Shown piece by piece: positions 6,332 to 20,075 of a stretch of 64,000 nucleotides of DNA. Each line of letters opens with the position of its first letter. The stretch's first letter is position 1. The position numbers were made by a program, and so were the translations under genes. Under the pieces are notes generated by a model. That model saw only the letters and a list, made by a program, of their open reading frames with translations, made no database searches and was not told the origin of the DNA. The stretch comes from Fistulifera solaris (lineage: Eukaryota): assembly GCA_030295235.1 (NCBI GenBank), contig AP026136.1, positions 1-64,000 of the forward strand, given 5' to 3'.

Positions 6332-8349
6332 TTAGAGAATTAGGTCTCCATGATCCGTTCCATTTGCTGCAGGATGTCGTGCCAATCGTTCCGGCACTTT
6401 GTTCCCGGTACTCTCCAAATATGCTTTCAATGCAGCCATGATACCCGTGTCCTCTTCTGTTATCAGAGACGTAGCCAAACCTTCTTTGCCAGCTCGACCT
6501 GTACGACCGATGCGATGCGTATAGTTTTCAATGCTTCGTGAGGGCAAATCGTAATTTATGACATGGGCAACATCTGGTACATCTAAACCACGTCCAGCAA
6601 CGTCAGTTGCGACCATGACTACGCCTCCACGACGGAATGTCGCGAGACTCTCTTCTCGCTGCTCTTGCGTTTTGCCACCGTGAAGCACAACCACTTGTCG
6701 TCCCGCGCGCTCAACAATTCGTCCAACATACTCAGCGTGTTTCTTTTCGTTCACGAATACAATAACCTTTTCGTACAAAAAGCGAAGATTGCTGATTTGT
6801 TGCATCAAAGCCTTTTCTTTCAATGCAGGTGAAGCTAACCAGACTAACTCTTGCACAATTCGAGAGTTTTTACCGGATCTTTGATCCCCTATGCTTACCA
6901 CAGCTGGGTAGCGTAAGTAAGCTTTTGCTATCTTTTCAACTTCAGGTGGCATCGTAGCGCTGAACATGGCTGTTATACGATAGCGAGCTACAGCGTTCTG
7001 ATTCTGCAAATCTTCTTGTTCTTGTTGATAAGCTCTCAGTTCATCATCCGCCGACTTTAGCATTCCTCCCATCGAGTCTAATATAGACTGAACCTGAGGT
7101 AAAAATCCCATGTCTACCATTCGATCTGCTTCATCGAGTACGACATAACAGCACTGATTGAGCACCAAATACGCCATCTCGATGCAATCGTTGATTCTCC
7201 CGGGAGTTCCGACAACGATGTGCACCCCTTTGCGCACTTGCTGAGCCTGTTGTTGAATAGCTTGTCCGCCTACAATAGGACAGGTAATGAGATTTGGCGT
7301 AAGGCTCAAGAGTTTTCGAAACTCCCCATCGATTTGCACAGCCAACTCTCGCGTCGGTGCAAGAACCAATGCCAAAGGCCCTTCCTCCGCTACTCGCTGC
7401 AAAACAGCGGTTGGTAGTTGCATCAAATAATGACAAAGTGGAACACCAAAGGCAACAGTCTTTCCACTTCCCGTCTCCGCGATACCAATCATATCTCTTC
7501 TCTGCAATCCTACCGGAATCGCCTGTCGTTGAATAGGAGAAGGTTCTTTAAATCTCATGACGTCGAAAAGCGCCTTTATGAGAAGCGGATGAATGGAAGG
7601 GAGTCCTGGTGAAGCCTCTTCAAAAGATCGTAGCGGCGGGGGTGCTTGTCCTCCTCGTACGTGTATTTCGTAATTTTCCCGCAGAATTCTCCAATCTCGA
7701 TTGGTCATTTGTGACAAGGGTTTCTGCATGGCCGATTCTCGATTTGCTACTTCGTTTTCCAGTAATTTGACTTTTTTGCTCTGGAATGACTGTGGCTTTA
7801 CAAAGACGGGAGTGGCGTAAAGAGGATCATCGGTCTCAAAGGTGTCGTCCGTATCATCCCATTGAAATTTAAACATGGTTCTCTTTTTGGACCCCCGCTG
7901 TTGCTTCTGTTTCGCTTCCATTTCTTGATTCAAAGAATCATCCTTGACACCTAAATACGTGTCCTTTATCACTGCATGTTGTTTTTGCGTCAAATCGCTG
8001 CCGGCTGTCGACGTTCTAGAGAGTAGGCTACTTTCCACTGGCTCGGACTGTGGCTGTTTCTTAACGAGTTCAGTAGGTTCATCTTTGATTGCTGTCTGTT
8101 GTTTCCGCTTTTGTTTCGGTACGTAAACTACTCTTCCGCCATTGATTTTATTATTTGAATGTGTTTTCTGCCATGGCTTTTCGAATTGCTGTCGTTCTAA
8201 CTCTTTTGACGCAATGCACGTTCAATAGCTCTTTGCTCGGCTCGTTCTTCTGCGCGTTTCGCCGCTTCTGCTGCTGCCAACGCTTCCTTTCGTTCAAATT
8301 CGGATAATCCTTCTAATAAGGCAGGATCTATTAATGTTTCGAGTTGCAT
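6332..8349 (-). CDS. DDX23: DEAD-box splicing RNA helicase PRP28/DDX23 (N-terminus split by apparent indels upstream of ~8040)
   Basis: Helicase motifs AETGSGKT, LAPTRELA, DEAD, SAT and HRIGRTGRAG, plus the PRP28-type 'DWRILRENYEI..RGG..PPPLRSF' and 'FKFQWD'. An upstream ATG at 8349 reads MQLETLIDPALLEGLSEFERKEALAAAEAAKRAEERAEQRAIERALRQK and is broken at an A-run near 8205. Confidence 0.92.
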
Positions 8350-8970
8350 CTTGAACGTATCGAGTGTACAAGTAATTAAAGCCCCAATTCTTCATCGTCA
8401 TTATCGCAAAGGCAGCAACGCCGTCGCACATAAAGTCGACGATGATTCATGACTGAAATACCGCAGTCGTGGTGAAAAGTCGTCTTCTCTTCGAGCCATA
8501 GTGAATACAGAGAAACTATACCTCGACAACTTTTCGACATCATAAAACAGCGAGTGCTGTGCAAACGCATCTGAGCGTGATTGCAGTGTAATGGAGACAA
8601 ATGTAAAATATTGAGAAAGAGTAGTTAGTAAATTATAGGTAGATGCACTCTAATTCCTCAATTCATGACTGATGACTGAAGTATGGGTCGTGCGTGGGCG
8701 ATCGGCGATTTGAGTGCCGGCTCACTTAGAGAAAGGAGTACCGAACCGCAGCCGTTGACACTGACGTCTTTTTGGATTTCTTGGACGAGAAAAGAGGTGA
8801 TGCTTTTCTTTTGCAAACAAAAATCTTGGTTGTCGTTTGTCGTACAACATCAACTCGCTCGTTGACACTTACATGACTTATCGTCTATCATCTTTAATCT
8901 TACAGATCGACTTATTACTATCAAAGAAGATCAACCGACGAGACGTCGTTTTCGCCGCAACGCAGCTACG

Positions 8971-11900
8971 ATGCATTTGAAACGACGATTCAAACTTCTA
9001 TCGATTCTTCTGGCGATCGCTTCTGTAAGCGGTTTTACTTTGTCGAACCGACGACAATGGAGAGCTCCCATCCTTTTCTCCGCTTCTTCAAACTATGATA
9101 ATGCTGCTTCAAGCGAACGTCCTCCGCAGGTAGCTTTATTACTGCATCAAAGAGTCGACCCGATAGCAGCTCTCGGTTTGCTCTCGTCGAAAGGATATCA
9201 AGTTACTGCGTTTTACATTCAGCAATATGAGAACATGCTGGATCAAAATGAGCTAGTCGATTTAGAACGACGTTGTGCGCGCTACGGGGCTCCAATGCAA
9301 GTAATGGAGGCACCTCCTGTCGCAGGACCGCCCTCGGAATTCGTTTTGAGTGATGCACGAGACAAAATCAAGCTTTTCCAGCAAAACGGATTTGACTTTG
9401 ATTATGTAGCGACATGGTATCAAGTTTCGGTGCAACTAGGAGAAAGAGGTGATGGAATTCAGTTAATGCAGCCGTCGGATGCAACTAATGGCGACTCTTT
9501 TTTACTGTGTATGCTAAACCGAGATCAATTGGATACTTTGGTGCCCAAGCAGAATGCCGCGTCGGTCTCAAAGCAAGAAAAGAATATATTCGGACAAATT
9601 GTGGACTTCTTTGTACCAAAGGAAAAGAACGATTATTCAAGTTATGAAAGAACGAGTGCAGAAAGTCAAGCCTCTCGGCAGCAAGCGTCAAATAAGAATG
9701 AGTACGAGGAACAAAAAGATCGTCAATCAAAAGATGCGATCACCGAGTCAAATCCGAACAATACTCCTCAGTCACCTGCCGTAAGACCCTTGCAAACATT
9801 GCCCCTTCAGCAGCAAACAGCAAGTACGGTGGCAGCTCCTCGCAGACCACCACCAAAAACTTTTTCAAAAGATGCTTCGTCTTCTCCACGGACACAGTCT
9901 CTCGATCCCCTTGTTGGAACTTCACGAGCCGACCCTAGTACCCGGTCGTCTTGGCGTGCGAGTCAAGGGCCACCATCGGCGCTTGGCCCAGATTTTACAG
10001 GCTCAAACACATATCCCGGTGCAGATGCTGCTAGACGAGCACGTCCTTTAGATCCATGGCGCAGTGAACGCACGAGCAATCAGATGTTGCAAAGCGATAA
10101 CATGCAAAGCAGACCTTCGAGCAATTGGGGAGCACGTAATGGACAATCCGCAACCGACGGGACCATTGCACTACAAAATATTTATGGCAATAGCGGGAAT
10201 AGTGCTGTGTCTTCGTGGACGACGCGAAGTGAAGATCGCGGACAGGGTTTTTACGCGGACAAGCGTGTGGACGATGGTGGAGCTTCAATAACAGAAACGA
10301 CGAAGCCTCGCGACAATATACCACCTTCCCGGCAATACTCTACACCAAAGAAACGACCCGAACCGTTGATGCCCATAGATGCTCCACGAAGCGAAGCAAT
10401 GTCAGCATGGACTGGATCAACAGTATCAAGTAGAAGCGCTTCTAACTACCCAGAGCGCCTTCTGTCTGGTTCTTCGTCATGGGTCACAGGTGCCAGGTCT
10501 AATAAGGACATTCGACCGGATCCTTTACAGCCCACAGACCCTCGCCCTAATGAGGCAGTATCAACATGGACTGGATCAACGTATTCGTCGTCAAGCAGAA
10601 ACACCAATCAACAAAATCCTCTTCAACCGATCGATCCCCCACCAAGCGATGCAACATCTGTTTGGACTGGATCCATTCCTGGAAGAAGCAACGAAAGGAA
10701 TTCAAATGATGACTTCTCAAGAATGCCAGTCAGTACAGAACTTCGAACGCGGGGAAAGTCTGACTATGTGTCCGATGTTCGTAACCCATCCCAGAGGTCA
10801 ATCAAAGCCGATGCTCCGACTGAACAAAAAAAGGTAGACGACTTCTACCAAAACCGTAGACCTCCCGAACCAGATAGTCAACAAGCGGAAACTTTGAAAC
10901 AAGACGATAGATGGGGACGGCCCGAATCGAATAATTTTTATGATTCCAACAATGTGGACGGACAACCCAATTGGAATGCCCCGCAACCACAAGAACAGCT
11001 GTACCAAGATCGCATCAACGGATCAGGACAAGACGGTACTACTAAAACATGGGAACCGCTGGAAGCCGAAGCATTATATGAGGCAGTGCAAGACGCATTT
11101 GCGTATTTCTCTCAACTTGCACCGGAACAAGTTCGTAGCGATTTGAAACAACGAGGTGAATGGTACGAACTAGAACAGTTTCCTCTGGAAATTCTTGTGA
11201 CACCACAGGCTTCCGTAGAAGATTGTTCTTCGCGTGTTTCTATTCAAACAGGGTTTTTCCAAGAAAATGGCGACTGGATTATGTACGGGTTCCAAGGCGA
11301 GACGGAATCCTTAGTCCTTCGCGGTTTAATTCAAATTTTATCCGATATTACACAGGAAGTTTCTATTGATGCAGTGCTGGCTTTACCACCCAACGAAATC
11401 GTGAAAGTCTTGGGTTTAGAACCAGCATTACGGCAAAAAGAAAAGAGAGACATGATTGCAATCTGGAACTCCCTGCAACAGCAAATTCAAGAAACAATCT
11501 TTGGGTATTCAAGAAATAAAAACGATTTGGAATACCAGCCGTCGATTATGGGAACCTCAATCCCGGGGACCGGAAACGATAAGTCTGAAGCTCGGAAAGG
11601 ATGGGGTCCAGAGTCGAGCACGAGCAATAATAAGAAGCAACCGAATACATCGGGATCGCCTCCTCCTTTTGCTATCTGGGATCCGACCAGTTCAACAGCA
11701 CAGTCATCACCTCCACCAAGTTCCCCTTCGTCTTCGCCTTCGGATAGGCTTTCCCGTCTTGACCGATTGTCGTCAACTTCCACTCCTAAATTTGCAGACG
11801 GTGCTCAAGTTGATGCTTCGGCAAACAAAGCTCCATGGGACAACTGGACACCGCCGCCTACGCAGGACAAGCAGTCAACGCCACCAAATGCTCCATCTAC

Positions 11901-13224
11901 AATGGGGACATCGATTCCAGGGGCAGCAAGCGGGAAGACGGGGACTAAGAAAGGTTGGGGTCCAGGTTCCAGCACTAACAGCGATAAAAAGCAACCGAAT
12001 ACATCGGGCTCGACCCCGCCGTTTGCTATTTGGAATCCGACGAGTGCATCCGTTGAATCGTCTCCGTCGCCTAGTCCACCATCTTCTTCGCCCTCGGATA
12101 GACTTTCGCGTCTCGACAGATTGTCGTCACCGTCTACCCCTAAAGTCGCTGACGGTGCTCAAGTCGATCCATCAGCAAACAAAGCTCCATGGGATAACTG
12201 GACACCGCCTTCTAAGCCAAATGGTCAATCGACTTCCGGATCGTCCACCTCATCAAGAAGTTCAAAGTCTGGATCTAGAAATTCTGTTTCTCAAATGCCG
12301 AAAAGTCAAAATGATTCGCACCGCGAGCGTAGCGCAACCTCTGACCAACAAACCGGTTGGAAAGGTCCAACTGATTTCGACCCGAATAGTCTCTCTGTGG
12401 CTACTTCGATTCCAGGAACTTCCCAAGCAAAGCCAGAGGTAAAATCCGGTTGGAAGCCGAGTCGAGGACGATTTGAATCTGATGACAACAAAAGCGGTTC
12501 CAATAAAAATGAGAACCAGCCTCCTTGGAACACATGGACACCGCCTCCGCAAGCGCCAGAAAAGACACAGCGCGACCAAAATCAACGAGCGCAACAGCAA
12601 AGCGGTTGGAGAGGCGACACAGACTTTGATCCATCGCAGCCATCCGTAGGAGCGTCAATTCCGGGAGCCGGTCAAGCGAAGCCGGAAGTTAAGTCCGGTT
12701 GGCAGCCAAGTCGCGAGAGATCATCATCCAGTAACAATAGCAACAATAATGATTTTGACAACAATCAGACACAGCCTCCATGGAATACATGGACACCACC
12801 AGCGCAAGTGCAACAAGATGCAAAGGGCGGCCAATATCAGAGGGCGCAACAGCAGAGTGATTGGACAGGCGACACCGTCTTTGACCCATCGCAACCATCC
12901 GTTGCTGCATCGATTCCGGGGGCTGGCCAAGCAAAGCCAGAGGTAAAATCCGGTTGGAAGCCGAGTCGAGGACTATCTGGATCTGATGACAACAGAAGCG
13001 GTTTCAGTAACAATGAAAACCAGCCTCCCTGGAATACATGGTCTCCTCCATCGACAAAGAATAGTACGGGCGACGCTGATAGATTCGAAAACGACCCGGA
13101 AATGTATGGTATAGAAATTCCTGATTTCGACCCTACTTTACCTTCGACCGGTAGTTCTATCCCAGGAGCAGGAGGAAGCAAACCTACTGTGAAGAAGGGT
13201 TGGTCTCCCGGCGGACGTAAATAA
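8971..13224 (+). CDS. Plastid-targeted 1417 aa protein: degenerate MnmA-like N-terminal domain, disordered linker, SufE-like domain, repeat-rich disordered tail
   Basis: Single long ORF with signal peptide plus VSG-F cleavage motif. 'VALLLHQRVD..ALGLL...GYQVTAFYI' and 'FDYVATW...D....DSFLLCMLNRDQL' resemble MnmA. 'VEDCSSRVSI...FQGETESLVLRGLIQIL...LGL' resembles SufE. The ORF is certain; the domain calls are by eye. Confidence 0.85.
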   Translation: MHLKRRFKLLSILLAIASVSGFTLSNRRQWRAPILFSASSNYDNAASSERPPQVALLLHQRVDPIAALGLLSSKGYQVTAFYIQQYENMLDQNELVDLERRCARYGAPMQVMEAPPVAGPPSEFVLSDARDKIKLFQQNGFDFDYVATWYQVSVQLGERGDGIQLMQPSDATNGDSFLLCMLNRDQLDTLVPKQNAASVSKQEKNIFGQIVDFFVPKEKNDYSSYERTSAESQASRQQASNKNEYEEQKDRQSKDAITESNPNNTPQSPAVRPLQTLPLQQQTASTVAAPRRPPPKTFSKDASSSPRTQSLDPLVGTSRADPSTRSSWRASQGPPSALGPDFTGSNTYPGADAARRARPLDPWRSERTSNQMLQSDNMQSRPSSNWGARNGQSATDGTIALQNIYGNSGNSAVSSWTTRSEDRGQGFYADKRVDDGGASITETTKPRDNIPPSRQYSTPKKRPEPLMPIDAPRSEAMSAWTGSTVSSRSASNYPERLLSGSSSWVTGARSNKDIRPDPLQPTDPRPNEAVSTWTGSTYSSSSRNTNQQNPLQPIDPPPSDATSVWTGSIPGRSNERNSNDDFSRMPVSTELRTRGKSDYVSDVRNPSQRSIKADAPTEQKKVDDFYQNRRPPEPDSQQAETLKQDDRWGRPESNNFYDSNNVDGQPNWNAPQPQEQLYQDRINGSGQDGTTKTWEPLEAEALYEAVQDAFAYFSQLAPEQVRSDLKQRGEWYELEQFPLEILVTPQASVEDCSSRVSIQTGFFQENGDWIMYGFQGETESLVLRGLIQILSDITQEVSIDAVLALPPNEIVKVLGLEPALRQKEKRDMIAIWNSLQQQIQETIFGYSRNKNDLEYQPSIMGTSIPGTGNDKSEARKGWGPESSTSNNKKQPNTSGSPPPFAIWDPTSSTAQSSPPPSSPSSSPSDRLSRLDRLSSTSTPKFADGAQVDASANKAPWDNWTPPPTQDKQSTPPNAPSTMGTSIPGAASGKTGTKKGWGPGSSTNSDKKQPNTSGSTPPFAIWNPTSASVESSPSPSPPSSSPSDRLSRLDRLSSPSTPKVADGAQVDPSANKAPWDNWTPPSKPNGQSTSGSSTSSRSSKSGSRNSVSQMPKSQNDSHRERSATSDQQTGWKGPTDFDPNSLSVATSIPGTSQAKPEVKSGWKPSRGRFESDDNKSGSNKNENQPPWNTWTPPPQAPEKTQRDQNQRAQQQSGWRGDTDFDPSQPSVGASIPGAGQAKPEVKSGWQPSRERSSSSNNSNNNDFDNNQTQPPWNTWTPPAQVQQDAKGGQYQRAQQQSDWTGDTVFDPSQPSVAASIPGAGQAKPEVKSGWKPSRGLSGSDDNRSGFSNNENQPPWNTWSPPSTKNSTGDADRFENDPEMYGIEIPDFDPTLPSTGSSIPGAGGSKPTVKKGWSPGGRK

Positions 13225-13278
13225 GTATTTCCGAACATTGCATTCTTTTGTCTTGATCTCTTCGTCTCTAGAAGTAAG

Positions 13279-15927
13279 TTACTTGTTCTGAGTAACATGC
13301 CGCATTTTCGGACCAAAATCTGGGTTTTTTAATCGAACGCTTCCAAAGATACGCTCCGGTAATGTCGATTCGTCATTACCCTCAAAAAGAAACCCCATGT
13401 CTACCACAAGCGTTTTCGCATACCCGAGAGCTAGTCGTACGACTCCCGTTGCAACGGGGTTACTCGCACAGTCTATGATGACCTCGAAAAACCGGCTACC
13501 TTGGACGTATAACTGACGTAGCTTCTTTCCTAACACTGCAGGAGTTGAACCAACCGCTTTGCGCACTAAAAAATTACCTTGCACTATTTGCGGTATCAAT
13601 TTGAAAGTTCGGTTGCGAAACTCGTCCGATGTGCCAAAAAAGAATTCGTTGCATAGTTTGGAAGAAGGCGTCCCATCTTCCCCGTTTATCAATCCCATGT
13701 CGTCGATTGCGTAGTAAAATACGCCGTGATAATAAGGGGGTCCAGGAATGACAATGTTCACCACAAAAACAAACGGTGGCATGTCACTCTTTAGACCTTT
13801 TGCTTTCAGTTCTGCTTCCGCGGAAAGCGCCATTTGCACACGTTCGCGTGGGTGGACACAAAACCCACTGTAAAGCGGTTGATCGACAGAAACTAGATCG
13901 ACAGCAACTAAGCGACCAATGCTGGGGCCGGCATTAATTTTCTGGCCGTCGTCTTTATAATGTTTTCCACGCACGCGAAAAGAATTGGAATCGGGCTCAG
14001 CCCAACTATTCCTGGTCAGTGGCATCGGCGTGCTTGCCAGTCCTGCAAATTTCGATGCTGATGCATATTCCTGAGTTGAAAAAGTGAAATCATAGTTCTG
14101 CAAATCATCGCGAGCTTCATCTCCTTCATCGTGATCATCCGACCTCGCTTGGGCAATACCATGTTGAGAAGAGGGATGAAAACTAAGCATCGCAACTGGC
14201 TCATCTCTGGCACAAGGGACAAATCGGTCCATGTCAATTGCATCACGGATATTTACAAGCTGCGACAGCATGGCAACCCCAAACGCTTCCGCATAACTTT
14301 GCCATGATAACATGGGAAGTGGTGTGGTTGGAACCCAACCGCGGGGGTCGACTTGAATAAAGGCTGTCACAAGGCATTCATTCGGTCTTGGAACACTGCG
14401 TCTGCTGGTAAAGGTCTTCTTGTGTGGTGCGATGGTAAAACTTTGTGCATTTCCGCTCTCACAAAGAAATCCTCAAGAGGACAATCAGAATGTTCGACGG
14501 ACTCGTAACAAATAACATAGCTTCCATCTTCCTCGAGCCGCCAGTATCGATACAGGCAAAAGTCACGCGGTGCCGTCCAAGATGGAAATAAGAATAGAGG
14601 CGATAGTACCATATGGATAATGTCTGTATTGTCGTCAACAGCTTCAACAATCCGAAAAGTCAGCAAATACGCCGACTTGTTTTCAAGTAGCTGCTTGTGA
14701 TCAAAAGAAGCGACACAGCCCAAAGACATGAGGCACAAAAATGCGTCGACAGCTGACGTATTTAGAACCTCATGGGATTTTATAGGTGCGCACGCTTTCC
14801 CATCTAACGAGATCGTACTCCGAAAGCAAGAACGAAATTTCTGTTGTTCAATCCCAATGCGCTCTTCACGATATATTCGTAGAGCGGAAACGCCCGAGAA
14901 TGCAGAGGACCAACCGCCGTGTAAAAGGCGCCACGCGTATTGTTCTTGCTGTGACCATGCCTGATCTCTCCTCGACGGTTGTTTGGCTGTTTGCAACAAA
15001 GCATTTCTAGCCTTTCGACCGTCCGTTGCAAACAATTGTCCCCATGTTGACTGCTGAACACAAAGAGACTCTTGCGATGCGATAATACACTTTCTCCAGG
15101 CGTTAGCCGTCTCATACTCCGAGCTAGCGATCACAATTTCTTTTTTTCTTTTCACCAGTCACGCTTTCTCCTAGTCCAACTGCGGCGCTCCCTCCACCAG
15201 CCGCAGCAGCTCCCACAAAGACTAATCCTGCCACTAAACCGATACCAGCTGTAGCGACAGCTATAGCTGCAGTTCCGCCCGCGGCAGCTGCGATTTTTGT
15301 CCCTTGCCAGATTCGCTTCCGGCTTCTCCGGATTCTCATCTTCTTATTAGTACGATAATCACGCAATAGTTCCTCCTCTTGCGCCTGTTGCTGAGAAATA
15401 TTTCCTGTGGGGCCCTCCACATGAATACTCCGTTGTGATTTCGACCTATTGTGACCATCTTGGACGAAAAGTTCGTTGTCAAGCTTCGCTGATCTTCTAC
15501 GACGGTTTTTAGGGGATTTGGGGGAAAGGTCGAAACTTCCTTCAAAGCTAGGAGTGAGCTCTAACTCGACAGAAGAATCATCTCCACCATCATCTTCGAC
15601 TTCAAATGATGTAATGCGTAAGCAGTAAATGAGATCCTTGTGCTTGCTTACATAAAGTTCGGAGACTTCGCAGTTCGATAGATCGATTATTCCTTTTAGT
15701 TTGCCATTTGTAGTCGAATAGTACCGAAGCGAATTGTCAGAATGCAGAACAAAACGACGAGGAATGTATGGCTCGAGCCAGTTTCTACTTTTCTTGAGCA
15801 TTTCCCCTGCGAAAGGAACATTTCGGTGTCAAAATAAGGACTCGTTCTTCGCAGCAACATCGCAAGCAAAGCAGTTCGACTTACCATCCAACACAATATC
15901 GTCTTCTAAATCAAGTGGCTCCGCCAT
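13279..15927 (-). CDS. PH + START + EDR2 C-terminal (DUF1336) domain protein, EDR2-like; intron ~15807-15884 and apparent frameshifts near 15150 and 14370-14420
   Basis: The spliced N-terminus MAEPLDLEDDIVLDG|EMLKKSRNWLEPYIPRRFVL is PH-like. START-like motifs: 'PRDFCLYRYWRLEEDGSYVICYESVEHSDCP' and 'QVDPRGW'. EDR2_C motifs: 'WAEPDSNSFRVRGKHY', 'FRNRTFKLIPQIVQG', 'LVVDMGFLFEG...LPERIFGSVRL'. Confidence 0.88.
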
Positions 15928-16229
15928 TTTATAAACTATGATTCTGAGTGAAGTCAAAAGCAAAAAAAAAAGTTATGAGGAAAGATATACAGAATGATAA
16001 GACAGCGAAATGACGCAGTCATTCGAGCGAGCGCAAGAACGACGGAACGACAATATTATTATAAAGTCGCTTTTTCGCGTTCTCCTTTTCAACTCGTGAC
16101 TGTTGACTCCTGTAGAAAAATACTTTTTCCACGTTGAACATTAAGAATAGTTCAACGCCTTTGCATTGACTCCAGAAGAAGCTAACATTCTATCGTACGG
16201 CTAATTTACTGCATTTACATCAAATGGCG

Positions 16230-19200
16230 TTAATTTCTTGGCGGCATCATGTCCCTCGGTCGCATGCGGTCGTCGTAAGGTCCATTATTAGGCCCCCTGC
16301 CTGGTCCAGGGGCGCGCCATGCGTTATCGTCTCTGTAACGAAATCTCTCATCCTCGGGACGCCGTGGCCCCTCACCGCGATAATCATAATACTCTGACGG
16401 AACAGGTGGTGGTATTCGACTTCCTCGTTGTTGCCATCTGTCATCGTTCATTCTTCCACCCTCGTAGGGTGAGTAAGGCGGCCCTCGCTACTGTACGGTC
16501 GAGTTGGAATTATTCTATCAACATACGGCTTTTGATCAGGTCGCCGAGGAGGACTTCTGTAACCTTCGGATCGCGACCTCGAAGCGTTTTCGTTGAAAGG
16601 TGATCGGCGTGTTTCGTACCCTGGTTCGTTCGGATCTTGCGCAGCCTGCCCTGCGCCGCCGAACGGCGGTCGACGAGTTTCGTACCGTGGTTCGTTCAAG
16701 TCTCGAGCCCCCTGAGGTGAACTGCGAAAAGGAGATTGTGGTCCATCCTCGGTCAAGGGAACTCTACTTGTTTCGTACCCCGGTTCATTCACGTTTCGGG
16801 TTTTCTGCTCTGCACCACGATAAGGGGATTTTGGTGTCGAACTTCCTCGTGGCTCGCTATTCAATCGGTCAGCTCCCCTTCCTGATGCTGCTCGAGTTGT
16901 CGACTTAGACGCCGTGTCCTTGTCTCCTTTACTTGGTGATTGCGATTCAATCGTTGCTCTTTCGTAGTTTCCTGTCACAATGTCGAGGTACGTTCTGGGT
17001 CGAGGAGGACGATTCTTCTTTTGAAAGTACGTCGAAAAATCCTTTTCACCATTGCTTTCGTCCGCCACGGGATCAATGCCAGATTTTGCTTGTCCAGATG
17101 GCGATGACCACCCAGCATCTCGATCAGCGAACGGACCAGAAGGAGCGCCACGAGTTTCCGAAGCTGACCCACCTCGCGCTCGTCTTTCGCTTCCTGTGTC
17201 TTTTAAAACCTCTGCATCAAATGGCGTGTTTGCTTGGGTATATTCCCTTGCTGAATACTCTTGTGGGCGTCCCCGATAGGGCTCCCGTTCTCTATAACCG
17301 CTTTGTGGTCTGTCTCTTTGATCCACTGATCTGTAGCCTGATCCTCTAACAGATTGACCTCGAGGCTTGCGGTTGACTTCTGTAGTAAAGTCGCCTAATT
17401 TCGTCGGGAAGGCGGAAGGCTCCCAGCTTGCACGGTCATTTTGAGGGCTCCACCGCGTGTTGTCTTGGAATGGTCCTACTGGCGACCCTCTAGATGGTGT
17501 CGAACCCGTCCATGAAGACATAGTGCCACTAGCTGGAGAGAAATTCTGTGGTTGTAGAGTGACTCGCTCAGTGCCTGCTGTTGATGGTGTTGAACCAGTC
17601 CAAGGTGTTGATAAAAAAGTGTTTTGAGGTCCGACTCCACCAGGGGAGAATGGGTTATTCACAGAAGAGACACCAGGTGTCTGTAAATTTTTAGGGGTAA
17701 AAGGCAATGGATCTATGCCATCGGAAGCTTTCCAAACACTGGACGTGCCGGGACTATTCGGATACAATGGATCGAGCCTTGCCCCACCAGCCGACGAGCC
17801 GGACGGCGTTCGCCACGGAGTACTCGGAACTGAGCGCGACGAGTCAGCAGGATTCTTTATTTTATATCGATCTGACTCAACAAAGTCCGGTCCGAGAAAT
17901 GAGCCTTTGCTTGTGTCATTTTTGGGAATACTATCATATACCTTCCTCGAATTTTGGACGAAGTTCCCCGCCGATCCGGAGCTGGACGCTTTAAACGATG
18001 ATGAGGTTACTTCTTGGGGCTGCAAATTATCCTTTTTGGCCGGAGAATCATTCCACCGCTGCTCCGGTGCTTTACCAGAAAGTGGATTCAAAGAAGTTTG
18101 CGGGGGTCGTGACGACCCGTTTTCCCAGGGCGGACGTTCCGAGCTAGTAAGCGGCTTGAAACCAATTGTCGTCGGATCAGATTTCCATGACGACTTGGGT
18201 GCAGTTTCAATCCCGAATGCCGGACCGAGTGGTGGTTCGGTATCGGAGGAACCGACTGACCTACCACTATTACCTGCAGCATTCCAACGACTGCTCTTGA
18301 CAAAAGAAGGAGTACTGGCGACAACGTCAGATTGTGCACCGTTAAAATTATTCGAAGATGATGACGACATTCGGTCAACACGTGAAAGCCTCTCTGAGGA
18401 GGAAGAAGTTCCATCGGATCGGGTGCGACTGCTAGTAAAAGTGGATTGGGCACTATCAGTATTCTGCGGGGGAGGAGTCCAGTTGTCCCACGGTGCCTTA
18501 TTTGCCGAAGCATCTACTTCTGCACCATCCGCAACCTTAGGGGTAGACGGCGACGACAATCGGTCGAGACGCGAAAGTCTATCCGAGGGCGAAGAGGATG
18601 GCGGACTAGGTGACGCAGAGGACTGCGCTGATGCACTTGTAGGATCCCAGATAGCAAACGGCGGAGCAGATCCCGCTGTACTCGATTCTTTATTTTCATT
18701 GCTGGAACTATTGCCCGAACCCGGCCCCCATCCTTTCTTCACCGCAGGCTTTGCACTACTGGCACCAGGAATGGAAGTTCCCATTGTCGATGGTGCATCA
18801 GAGGAAGAGGATTGCGTATTTTGTGGAGGAGGCGGGACCCAGTTATCCCAGGGCGCCTTATTTGCCGATGTATCCACTTCTGCACCGTCCGCAAATTTCG
18901 GCGTTGACGGCGAAGAAAGACGGTCGAGACGCGAAAGCCTATCCGAGGGCGAGGCCGACGGTGGACTAGGCGACGGAGACGACTGCGTGGATGCACTCGT
19001 AGGGTCCCAAATCGCAAACGGCGGAGCTGAACCTGATGCCTTCGCCTGTATATTGTCACTGGAAGTGCTCGATCCAGGACCCCATCCTTTCTTTGTGGCG
19101 GACTTTGAGCTTCCTGCTTCCGGAATCGAAGTACCCAAGGTAGAAGGACTATCAAACGATGTCGTCTGCGAGTTTTGCGGCGGAGGAGGTACCCAGTTAT

Positions 19201-20075
19201 CCCAGGGAGCCTTATTTGCCGATGCATCCACTTCGGCACCATCAGCAAATTTAGGGTTGGACGGTGATGATAATCGGTCAAGACGAGAAAGTCTATCAGA
19301 CGGTGAAGAAGAAGGCGGACTAGACGACGGAGATGATTGCGCTGATGCACTTGTAGGATCCCAGATAGCAAACGGCGGAGCTGATCCCGATGTACTCGAT
19401 TGGCTGCTACTTCCGCTACCTGGACTCCATCCTTTCTTCACAGCCGGTTTTGAGCTTCCTGCCCCAGGAATTGAGGTTCCCATAGTCGAAGGCTCATAGT
19501 CAGAGTCTTCATTGCTTCCATAAAGTGTCTCTTTAATTTGTTGCTGCAGGGCACTCCAAACAGCGCCCATGTCGTTGCTGTCACTCTGACTCAAAGTGGA
19601 TTGTAATCCTAACGCGTTTCCGATTTGATAAGGCGGCAACGACATCACTTCATCAATAGGGACATCTTGCGTAATATCAGATAGAATTTGAATCAAACCA
19701 CGAAGAACAGTGGCGTCAGTATCGCCCTGGAACCTAAAGATGATCCATTCTCCATTCTCCTGATAAAGCCCTGTTTGAATAGAAACGTGCGAGGAACAAC
19801 CCTTTACGGACGTTTGCGGAGTTACCAAGACTTCTGTAGGGGAACTGTGCGAGCTCATACCATTCGCCTCGTTGCTTTAAATCGCTGCGCACTTCTTCCG
19901 GTGACAGTTGAGAGAAATAGGCAAAAGCGTCCTTCACTGCATCTTGTAGTGCTTCGGCTTTCAAGGGCTGCCACGTTGCGGAAGGAATTACTGCAATATG
20001 ATTCTTGAGTATAAACGCACTCGAGAAACTGTGCGTTGCTGCTAAACACAGCACGCAAAGCGGCGACGTCCTCAT
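16230..20075 (-). CDS. Plastid-targeted ~1280 aa paralog of 8971-13224: SufE-like domain plus repeat-rich disordered tail (two apparent 1-bp frameshifts near 19840 and 16483)
   Basis: ORF 19734-20075 supplies the signal peptide, SSA-F motif and 'AEALQDAVKDAFAYFSQLSPEEVRSDLKQRGEWYELAQFP', nearly identical to the paralog. It continues in ORF 16448-19858 ('VKGCSSHVSI...FQGDTDATVLRGLIQIL'). A further shift gives ..PPYSPYEGGRMNDDRWQ.. to the stop at 16230. Confidence 0.82.

Follow-up and report, generated by a model that had tools for sequence, protein, structure and literature searches.

Two paralogous genes of Fistulifera solaris with a divergent SufE domain and tryptophan-motif repeat tails

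SufE proteins contain an ultra-conserved cysteine that receives a persulfide, and in plastids they are known as SUFE1, which may or may not carry a BolA domain, and as SUFE3, which is joined to NadA (PMC8003979). The SufE domain was previously known as a small sulfur shuttle or in BolA and NadA fusions, and is found here in proteins of approximately 1300 to 1400 residues. These are encoded by gene A (8971..13224, forward strand) and gene B (20075-16230, reverse strand), in a 64,000 nucleotide window of Fistulifera solaris DNA (contig AP026136.1, positions 1 to 64,000), and both carry long tails with repeated tryptophan motifs.

For the tails, one of the closest described systems is the pyrenoid linker PYCO1 of the diatom Phaeodactylum tricornutum. 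According to PMC10288592, PYCO1 binds the Rubisco small subunit through the sticker KWSPRGGS, in which the tryptophan is essential, and a second tryptophan motif binds the large subunit. Its GTGYNP motif drives self-association, its isoelectric point (pI) is 10.03 and its repeats are spaced by approximately 80 amino acids. The binding is specific to the diatom small subunit, with a tetrad of stickers placed on four small subunits. Its authors found no BLAST homologue in other algae. A 2026 review lists no other diatom linker, and according to a preprint centric diatoms lack PYCO1.

The best explanation is that genes A and B are paralogous, intronless nuclear genes, each encoding a putative bipartite plastid presequence, a divergent SufE/CsdE domain and more than 1000 low-complexity residues with repeats. 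The chances are about even that the multivalent tryptophan motifs hold this plastid sulfur-relay domain in a higher-order assembly. The SufE domain would take a persulfide from a plastid cysteine desulfurase, which is the role expected from its family (PMC8003979). The motif arrays, judging from their architecture, may be multivalent docking sites. Docked in this way, the relay domain would be part of a higher-order assembly in the plastid, through self-association or on an abundant partner, of which Rubisco is one possibility. If the tails build or enter such an assembly, this would be the first case in which multivalent short motifs organise a component of sulfur relay. An earlier note on this DNA did not recognise the architecture from described proteins. 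Among the papers listed for SufE with diatoms and the pyrenoid, or for SufE with Phaeodactylum, no title or abstract deals with such a protein, and the architecture appears to be undescribed among the searches made.

The nearest named proteins are GAX20530.1, which is 88% identical to A, and GAX20532.1, which is 59% identical to the query region of A. Both are from F. solaris, all three matches of a word search were to these proteins, and a Joint Genome Institute (JGI) model is titled 'sulfur transfer protein SufE'. F. solaris is described as allodiploid, and GAX20530.1 and GAX20532.1 are therefore most likely the homoeologs of A and B, respectively. Going by accession numbers, they also flank a single gene. 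A HMMER search of 1.84 billion representative proteins with residues 690-1417 of A (728 amino acids) returned two hits, its own protein and the B homoeolog. No SufE protein was found among these representatives with this query at an expectation value (E) <=0.001, and none by the word search. At E<=10, word-index searches revealed no shorter protein related to the SufE domain or to the N-terminal domain of A. Two metagenome scans, one with patterns from the SufE alignment and one with patterns from the long repeats, gave no relative that was confirmed by tblastn. Among the databases searched, the family was found in one species only, and its function can therefore not be cross-checked by conservation; both points weigh against the explanation given above.

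A divergent SufE/CsdE domain and the N-terminal domain of gene A

The Pfam family PF02657 (SufE) is matched by gene A at 34.1 bits and by gene B at 52.5 bits, both above the cut-off of 27. The NCBIfam SufE/CsdE equivalog cut-offs are missed (28 bits versus 160). In gene A the domain occupies residues 693-850 (11047..11520, forward strand), behind an N-terminal domain and a 477 amino acid low-complexity stretch, and in gene B it lies at 19514..19973 on the reverse strand. When a profile of four copies of the domain was compared with the PDB, all eight matches were SufE/CsdE structures, the best with an E of 0.0022. In this comparison the acceptor cysteine (Cys752 of A at 11224-11226; 19796-19798 in B) is aligned with residue 51 of the E. 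coli SufE chain, and GDSDAxIVKGL of the A/B profile with GETExLVLRGL of SufE. The cysteine lies within DCSSRVSI in A and GCSSHVSI in B, compared with GCQSQVWI in E. coli SufE and GCENRVWL in YgdK/CsdE. No other cysteine occurs over the last 1237 residues of A or within the 1131 amino acid middle (main) frame of B. Across 502 aligned columns, covering the SufE domain and two repeats, A and B are 59% identical. The earlier proposal of a common SufE-like folded domain is thus borne out by the Pfam matches in both genes and by the eight PDB profile matches. On these alignments, the folded domain is a very divergent SufE/CsdE domain that keeps the acceptor cysteine.

The likeness to the SufE/CsdE family (PF02657; E. 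coli SufE and CsdE/YgdK) is in this cysteine and in the aligned G-[DE]-[ST]-[DE]-x-x-[IV]-[VL]-[KR]-G-L segment. Known SufE proteins are, however, approximately 140 amino acids long, whereas the domain of A and B is part of proteins of 1300–1400 amino acids, is very divergent and matches Pfam from profile position 32. Several features weigh against the SufE reading. The Pfam match spans profile positions 32-121 only, and the PDB matches of single sequences are insignificant, two of the four being to RuvA. The AlphaFold2 model of the domain, from a four-row alignment, has a predicted local distance difference test (pLDDT) score of 39.5, at which only the order of secondary structure is usable. 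The SufE segment 'tpsRsqG' lies opposite RQKEKRD in the profile consensus and SQSDSND in gene B. Since this segment is replaced in the A and B alignments, the interaction with the desulfurase may be altered.

Plastid SUFE1 and SUFE3 of plants and algae resemble A and B in having a plastid-directed SufE domain fused with another module (PMC8003979). The partners differ, these being tryptophan-motif repeat tails in A and B and, in A, a degenerate PP-loop domain. Neither BolA nor NadA was found in A or B by Pfam at E<=1.

The N-terminal domain of A (residues 51-215; 9121..9615, forward strand) is probably, with somewhat better than even chances, a degenerate PP-loop domain of the MnmA/TtuA type within the HUP class. 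It matches Pfam PF03054 (tRNA_Me_trans) with an E of 0.022 and 14.8 bits, under the cut-off of 20.6, and NCBIfam MnmA with a sub-threshold E of 0.091. In the ESM Atlas, PF03054 is present on all of the matches listed (score 0.82), which is taken as a lead only. The AlphaFold2 model has a pLDDT of 52 overall and of 62-85 over residues 1 to ~95, where a beta-alpha-beta pattern is seen. Foldseek returned no match at E<=0.001; TtuA, PH0300 and ArtA fill eight of the top ten ranks (E 5e-3 to 1.2e-2), with TtuA among the best matches and TrmU at rank 27. The sole family hints are therefore to PF03054/MnmA and the best fold matches to TtuA, both of which are clients of sulfur relay. The domain of A has approximately 165 amino acids, however, against 364 residues in the TrmU chain. 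Two points count against a PP-loop domain: all of the matches behind it are sub-threshold, and the best match of a PDB profile search is the hydrolase NtdB (E 0.0019 over 45 residues), with no PP-loop enzyme found in that search.

In PP-loop domains the ATP-binding signature SGGxDS lies after the first strand. This signature is not found in the N-terminal domain of A, where HQRVDP stands after the first predicted strand, in A and in its homoeolog. The domain is probably inactive, judging from its sequence. The presence of PP-loop and SufE domains in one gene hints that it derives from a sulfur-relay fusion of a thiolase with SufE, of which gene A would have kept the degenerate, tRNA-thiolase-like part. 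Such a history, if true, would be relevant to the thiolation of tRNA in plastids.

The repeat tails and their conservation

The basic-GW motif SIP[GE]x4Kx3[KR][KS]GW[SGKQ]P was found by regular expression six times in A and three times in B, and the C-terminus of A is KKGWSPGGRK. These are the numbers and the ending given in the earlier note, and chance expectation is far lower: in 5000 shuffles of each tail KGWxP occurred on average 0.008 and 0.004 times, with a maximum of one. The copy number therefore stands. Copy 1 of A departs from the pattern as first written in having arginine for the second lysine, and copy 2 of B in reading SIPE. A second motif, PW[DN][NT]WxP, was found five times in A, alongside six basic-GW motifs, and three times in B, alongside three; the earlier note had described the two motifs as paired in most copies. 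In a six-frame scan of the 64 kb window the basic-GW and PWxxW motifs are confined to genes A and B.

Behind the SufE domain, gene A has two long repeats of 118 amino acids (11533..12240, forward strand), with basic-GW motifs at 11557-11610 and 11911-11964. Gene B has three long repeats of 115-120 amino acids (18440..19498, reverse strand) with the same four motifs, forming a tandem repeat of period 354 with 2.6 copies and 76% matches; the ends of its basic-GW motifs are at 19421-19438, 19076-19093 and 18722-18739. The long repeat carries four blocks, PS[TI][ML]GTSIP[GE]x4Kx3[KR]KGW[GS]P, PPFAIW[DN]P, SDRLSRLDRLS (two copies in A and three in B) and KAPWDNWxPP, the first and last reading SIPG..K..KKGWGP and KAPWDNWTPP in A. 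The SDRLSRLDRLS block looks like an arginine/leucine helix-like motif. In a 120-column alignment of the five copies in the window, the first copy has 115 residues, and 64 of these stand in columns that are invariant in all five.

In gene A the long repeats are followed by three short repeats of approximately 83 amino acids and a final partial copy (12346..13221, forward strand), with basic-GW motifs at 12406-12459, 12655-12708, 12910-12963 and 13156-13209. The short repeats carry GW[KR]GxTDFDP, SIPGAGQAKPEVKSGW[KQ]P and QPPWNTW[TS]PP. The partial copy is 30 amino acids long and provides the KKGWSPGGRK end of the protein. Outside the repeats, low-complexity region 1 of A (residues 216-692; 9616..11046, forward strand) contains 10 tryptophans in serine, threonine and glycine contexts, including three WTGS. 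Low-complexity region 2 of B (16230..18433, reverse strand) contains 11 tryptophans (two WTGS), three NEP[GR]YETxR units (~16613-16789, reverse strand) and an arginine, tyrosine and proline-rich C-terminus. This end of B (16230-16487, reverse strand) includes YYDYRGEGPRRPEDERFRYRDD and is kept in the homoeolog. An arginine, tyrosine and proline-rich composition is typical of regions that self-associate through cation-pi contacts.

The PWxxW blocks lie at 11833-11847, 12187-12201, 12523-12537, 12778-12792 and 13027-13041 in A, and at 18479-18493, 18839-18853 and 19193-19207 in B. All eight have W-x-x-W spacing. This spacing is the consensus for C-mannosylation in the endoplasmic reticulum, through which plastid proteins of diatoms travel.

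The tails contain 7-10% isoleucine, leucine, valine, methionine and cysteine and 13-25% serine, the repeat regions 12-17% proline and the repeats 3.4-4.5% tryptophan. The pI is 9.5 for the long repeats of A, 5.1 for those of B and 5.4 for the short repeats of A. From this composition the tails are seemingly disordered. They have no match in Pfam or the PDB, and the repeats of B have no usable match in the ESM Atlas; the last 60 amino acids of A and the three repeats of B have no PDB sequence match at E<=10. Listeria-type GW modules were considered and gave no Pfam match at E<=1.

The repeat copies are old and are not recent duplicates. Synonymous divergence (dS) is 0.87-1.57 in nine of the ten long-repeat pairs and saturated in the remaining one, while nonsynonymous divergence (dN) is 0.13-0.21 and dN/dS 0.10-0.17. 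For the short repeats dN/dS is 0.12-0.39, and for the SufE domain, A against B, it is 0.11. The repeats are under purifying selection, and their dN/dS, which matches that of the SufE domain, shows a constraint as strong as that on the fold. Between homoeologs, the N-terminal domain is 94% identical, the SufE domain 93-94%, the long repeats 86-92%, the short repeats 91% and the other low-complexity regions 84-87% (87% for region 1 of A). There are no gaps between homoeologs over the 477 and 661 amino acid low-complexity regions, and the homoeologs retain all of the domains and motifs.

These values bear on whether the SufE domain could be the only functional part of the proteins, with the tails as neutral low-complexity expansions. 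Such a neutral origin would account for tails that lack matches in Pfam, the PDB and the ESM Atlas and for a family found in one species. It is contradicted by the low dN/dS of the repeats at near-saturated synonymous sites, by the invariant columns that hold more than half of the first repeat copy and by the ungapped low-complexity regions, and is therefore already disfavoured and highly improbable. Composition and dN/dS instead agree with the earlier description of the tails as multivalent, in that they are enriched in tryptophan, low in hydrophobic residues and maintained by selection. A constraint on the tails that is equal to that on the fold suggests that at least four distinct tryptophan or arginine/leucine motifs have a binding function.

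Targeting and possible partners of the tails

The diatom bipartite plastid presequence (ASAFAP type) consists of a signal peptide, phenylalanine at +1 and a transit-like stretch. Gene A begins with a signal-peptide-like N-terminus (residues 1-21, ...ASVSG|F) and a transit-like stretch (residues 22-50; together 8971..9120, forward strand). Its maximum Kyte-Doolittle hydropathy (window of 10) is 2.66 and there is one acidic residue in the first 45. Behind the phenylalanine is a 29-residue serine and arginine-rich stretch, and these features are kept in the homoeolog (P0006). Gene B has a signal-peptide-like N-terminus at residues 1-20 (...HSFSSA|F; 20016..20075, reverse strand), and HSFSSA|F is kept in its homoeolog (P0007). 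By eye and hydropathy, a hydrophobic core followed by small residues and phenylalanine at +1 is seen in four of the four proteins, A, B and both homoeologs. Of the presequences proposed earlier, 'SG-F' was thus read again in A and its homoeolog and 'SA-F' in B and its homoeolog, and the N-termini are interpreted, by eye, as candidate bipartite plastid presequences.

The signal-peptide-like N-termini are clear, and would equally be expected if A and B were secretory-pathway proteins, such as serine and proline-rich glycoproteins of the frustule, mucilage or cell surface, in which the phenylalanine at +1 is coincidental. Serine and proline-rich blocks such as SSPSPSPPSSSPS, the lysine-rich motifs and the tryptophan-rich repeats are reminiscent of cell-wall proteins of diatoms, cingulins for example, and in B only approximately 14 residues separate the predicted cleavage site from the domain. 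However, phenylalanine at +1 behind small residues is present in all four proteins, the 29-residue stretch of A has one acidic residue and is transit-peptide-like, and Pfam gave no cell-wall domain at E<=1. Moreover, SufE and PP-loop domains are, as known for these families, part of sulfur relay in organelles or the cytosol and foreign to the secretory pathway (PMC8003979). A secretory destination is therefore considered very unlikely.

The abundance of tryptophan flanked by glycine, serine, threonine, asparagine and aspartate in disordered sequence would also fit cytosolic or nuclear GW/WG 'Argonaute-hook' proteins with mis-read presequences, as such hooks show this pattern. The hydrophobic, signal-peptide-like N-termini are nevertheless kept in all four proteins, the start of gene A with its first ATG lies within a contig, and the SufE context does not fit. 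A role as Argonaute hooks is scarcely credible.

The tails could be Rubisco-binding stickers, with A and B as linkers or clients of the pyrenoid matrix and KKGW[SG]PG as the counterpart of KWSPRGGS of PYCO1. There are nine K-[KS]-G-W-x-P copies, four of which continue as W[SG]PGS and one as WSPGG, and the tail of B has tyrosine and arginine-rich NEPGYETRR units. The repeat spacing of 83-118 amino acids lies close to the approximately 80 of PYCO1 (PMC10288592). Because PYCO1 is the sole diatom linker in the 2026 review, and no homologue was found by its authors in other algae, the W-[SG]-P-G core beside lysines is a reasonable lead.

The lead is, however, thin. Glycine is inserted between lysine and tryptophan in all nine copies, and in the short repeats the motif runs on as WKPSRGR or WQPSRER. 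KWSP is found neither in A nor in B, and where B has its single RWSPQ the homoeolog has PWGPQ. Neither GTGYNP nor G.GY.P was matched in A, B or either homoeolog. The repeat regions, with pI values of 5.1, 5.4 and 9.5, are not near 10. In the PDB the tails have no match at E<=10, in a copy of that database for which the presence of a PYCO1 fragment chain is unconfirmed. The 1.84 billion representatives likewise gave no similarity to PYCO1, the search returning only the query's own protein and the homoeolog of the paralogue. In the supplement on Rubisco co-immunoprecipitation from Phaeodactylum (PMC10288592), two text files contain no SufE or sulfur term, and one file of PMC5935921 contains neither gene identifiers nor SufE; these files are part of each supplement.

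The likeness thus amounts to four or five residues in a glycine, serine and proline-rich context, and K-(G)-W-[SG]-P-G appears to be the sole likeness to the PYCO1 sticker. Three of five PYCO1 features are not found in A or B; disordered tandem repeats and a plastid presequence are, with the disorder judged from composition and the presequence by eye. Like PYCO1, A and B are candidate plastid low-complexity repeat proteins with tryptophan motifs beside lysine and a W-[SG]-P-G/S-rich core. They differ in having folded domains, K-G-W, no GTGYNP and no strongly basic charge, without detectable homology. That the tails are Rubisco stickers of any kind is rather unlikely. It is unlikely, too, that in this diatom, in which no PYCO1 was detected, K-K-G-W-[SG]-P-G would be a diverged small-subunit sticker, the other tryptophan motifs stickers for Rubisco or self-association, and A and B (four proteins with the homoeologs) pyrenoid matrix linkers or tethers that also place a SufE domain in the Rubisco condensate. 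If this is true, it would link Fe-S and sulfur metabolism with the pyrenoid, which has not been described before, and if Rubisco is the partner A and B would be linker candidates for a pennate diatom without PYCO1.

The EPYC1 and Rubisco-binding-motif proteins of Chlamydomonas are a further comparison, in that they have a sticker-spacer arrangement and their shared motif targets proteins with folded domains to a single assembly. Their motif is unrelated and the form of Rubisco differs, and residence of A and B in the pyrenoid would be by analogy. At most, A and B would work in a similar way to sticker-spacer linkers.

F. solaris is transformable, and editing of this species with CRISPR ribonucleoproteins was reportedly achieved in 2026 (PMC13276009). 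The function of the tails is therefore open to experiment.

Gene models and neighbouring genes

Three genes are found in this part of the window, gene A on the forward strand and, on the reverse strand, an EDR2-like gene in the middle and gene B. Gene A is a single exon and one open frame (8971-13224) of 1417 amino acids plus stop, and an in-frame stop at 8863-8865 precedes its first ATG. A contig of sequencing run X2 matches the window over 8831-9722 without differences and includes the 5' end of the gene with this ATG. The public model of gene A (P0002, 1329 amino acids) starts at Met89, 88 residues late, so that it leaves out 8971-9234 and with it the presequence. The signal and transit peptides are present in the homoeolog as modelled by JGI (P0006, 1413 amino acids).

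Gene B is likewise a single exon (20075-16230, reverse strand), which in the window sequence is split across three frames. Behind base 16481 an extra C is present in the contigs of four of the four runs, all from one study, and at 19839 one base is dropped in the contig of the one run that covers the site. The homoeolog (P0007, 1297 amino acids) is intact and reads AQFPSEVLVTPQ and NNEGPPYSPY unbroken across both sites. Since the contigs correct both sites and the homoeolog is unbroken, the two frame breaks are 1 bp assembly errors, an extra base at 19839 and a missing C behind 16481. A tiny intron at the first break was rejected, as the GT..AG candidates are limited to stretches of 16 and 27 nucleotides, whose removal deletes conserved residues. 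No joints indicative of introns were seen in gene A or gene B in the run contigs. In practical terms, gene B is broken by 1 bp errors in the assembly, and the presequence is absent from the public gene A model.

One contig of run X3 has ten loose T residues before 16183, 47 nucleotides beyond the stop of gene B. These are a probable poly(A) tail, on a guess that the run is of RNA, and the 3' untranslated stretch of gene B would accordingly be 16183..16229 on the reverse strand. Contigs of runs X2-X4 are found over both genes; 13024-16095 is uncovered by them, and this gap is not used as evidence. Genes A and B are real, lineage-restricted and expressed-looking. In a wetland metagenome run (X5), 8% of the sampled words of the gene B stretch are present, from which no inference on a relative is drawn.

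The middle gene has PH, START and EDR2_C domains, and its description as EDR2-like in the earlier note is correct. In the window this gene, too, is broken up, into open reading frames at 13279-14472, 14367-15158 and 15124-15828. Further one-base differences between the window and run contigs are found in or near this gene at 14436, 15139-15141 and 15962, which may be further assembly errors. Upstream of gene A is a long open reading frame on the reverse strand (6332-8221) that by eye resembles a DEAD-box RNA helicase, with GSGKT, DEAD, SAT and HRIGRTGR motifs.

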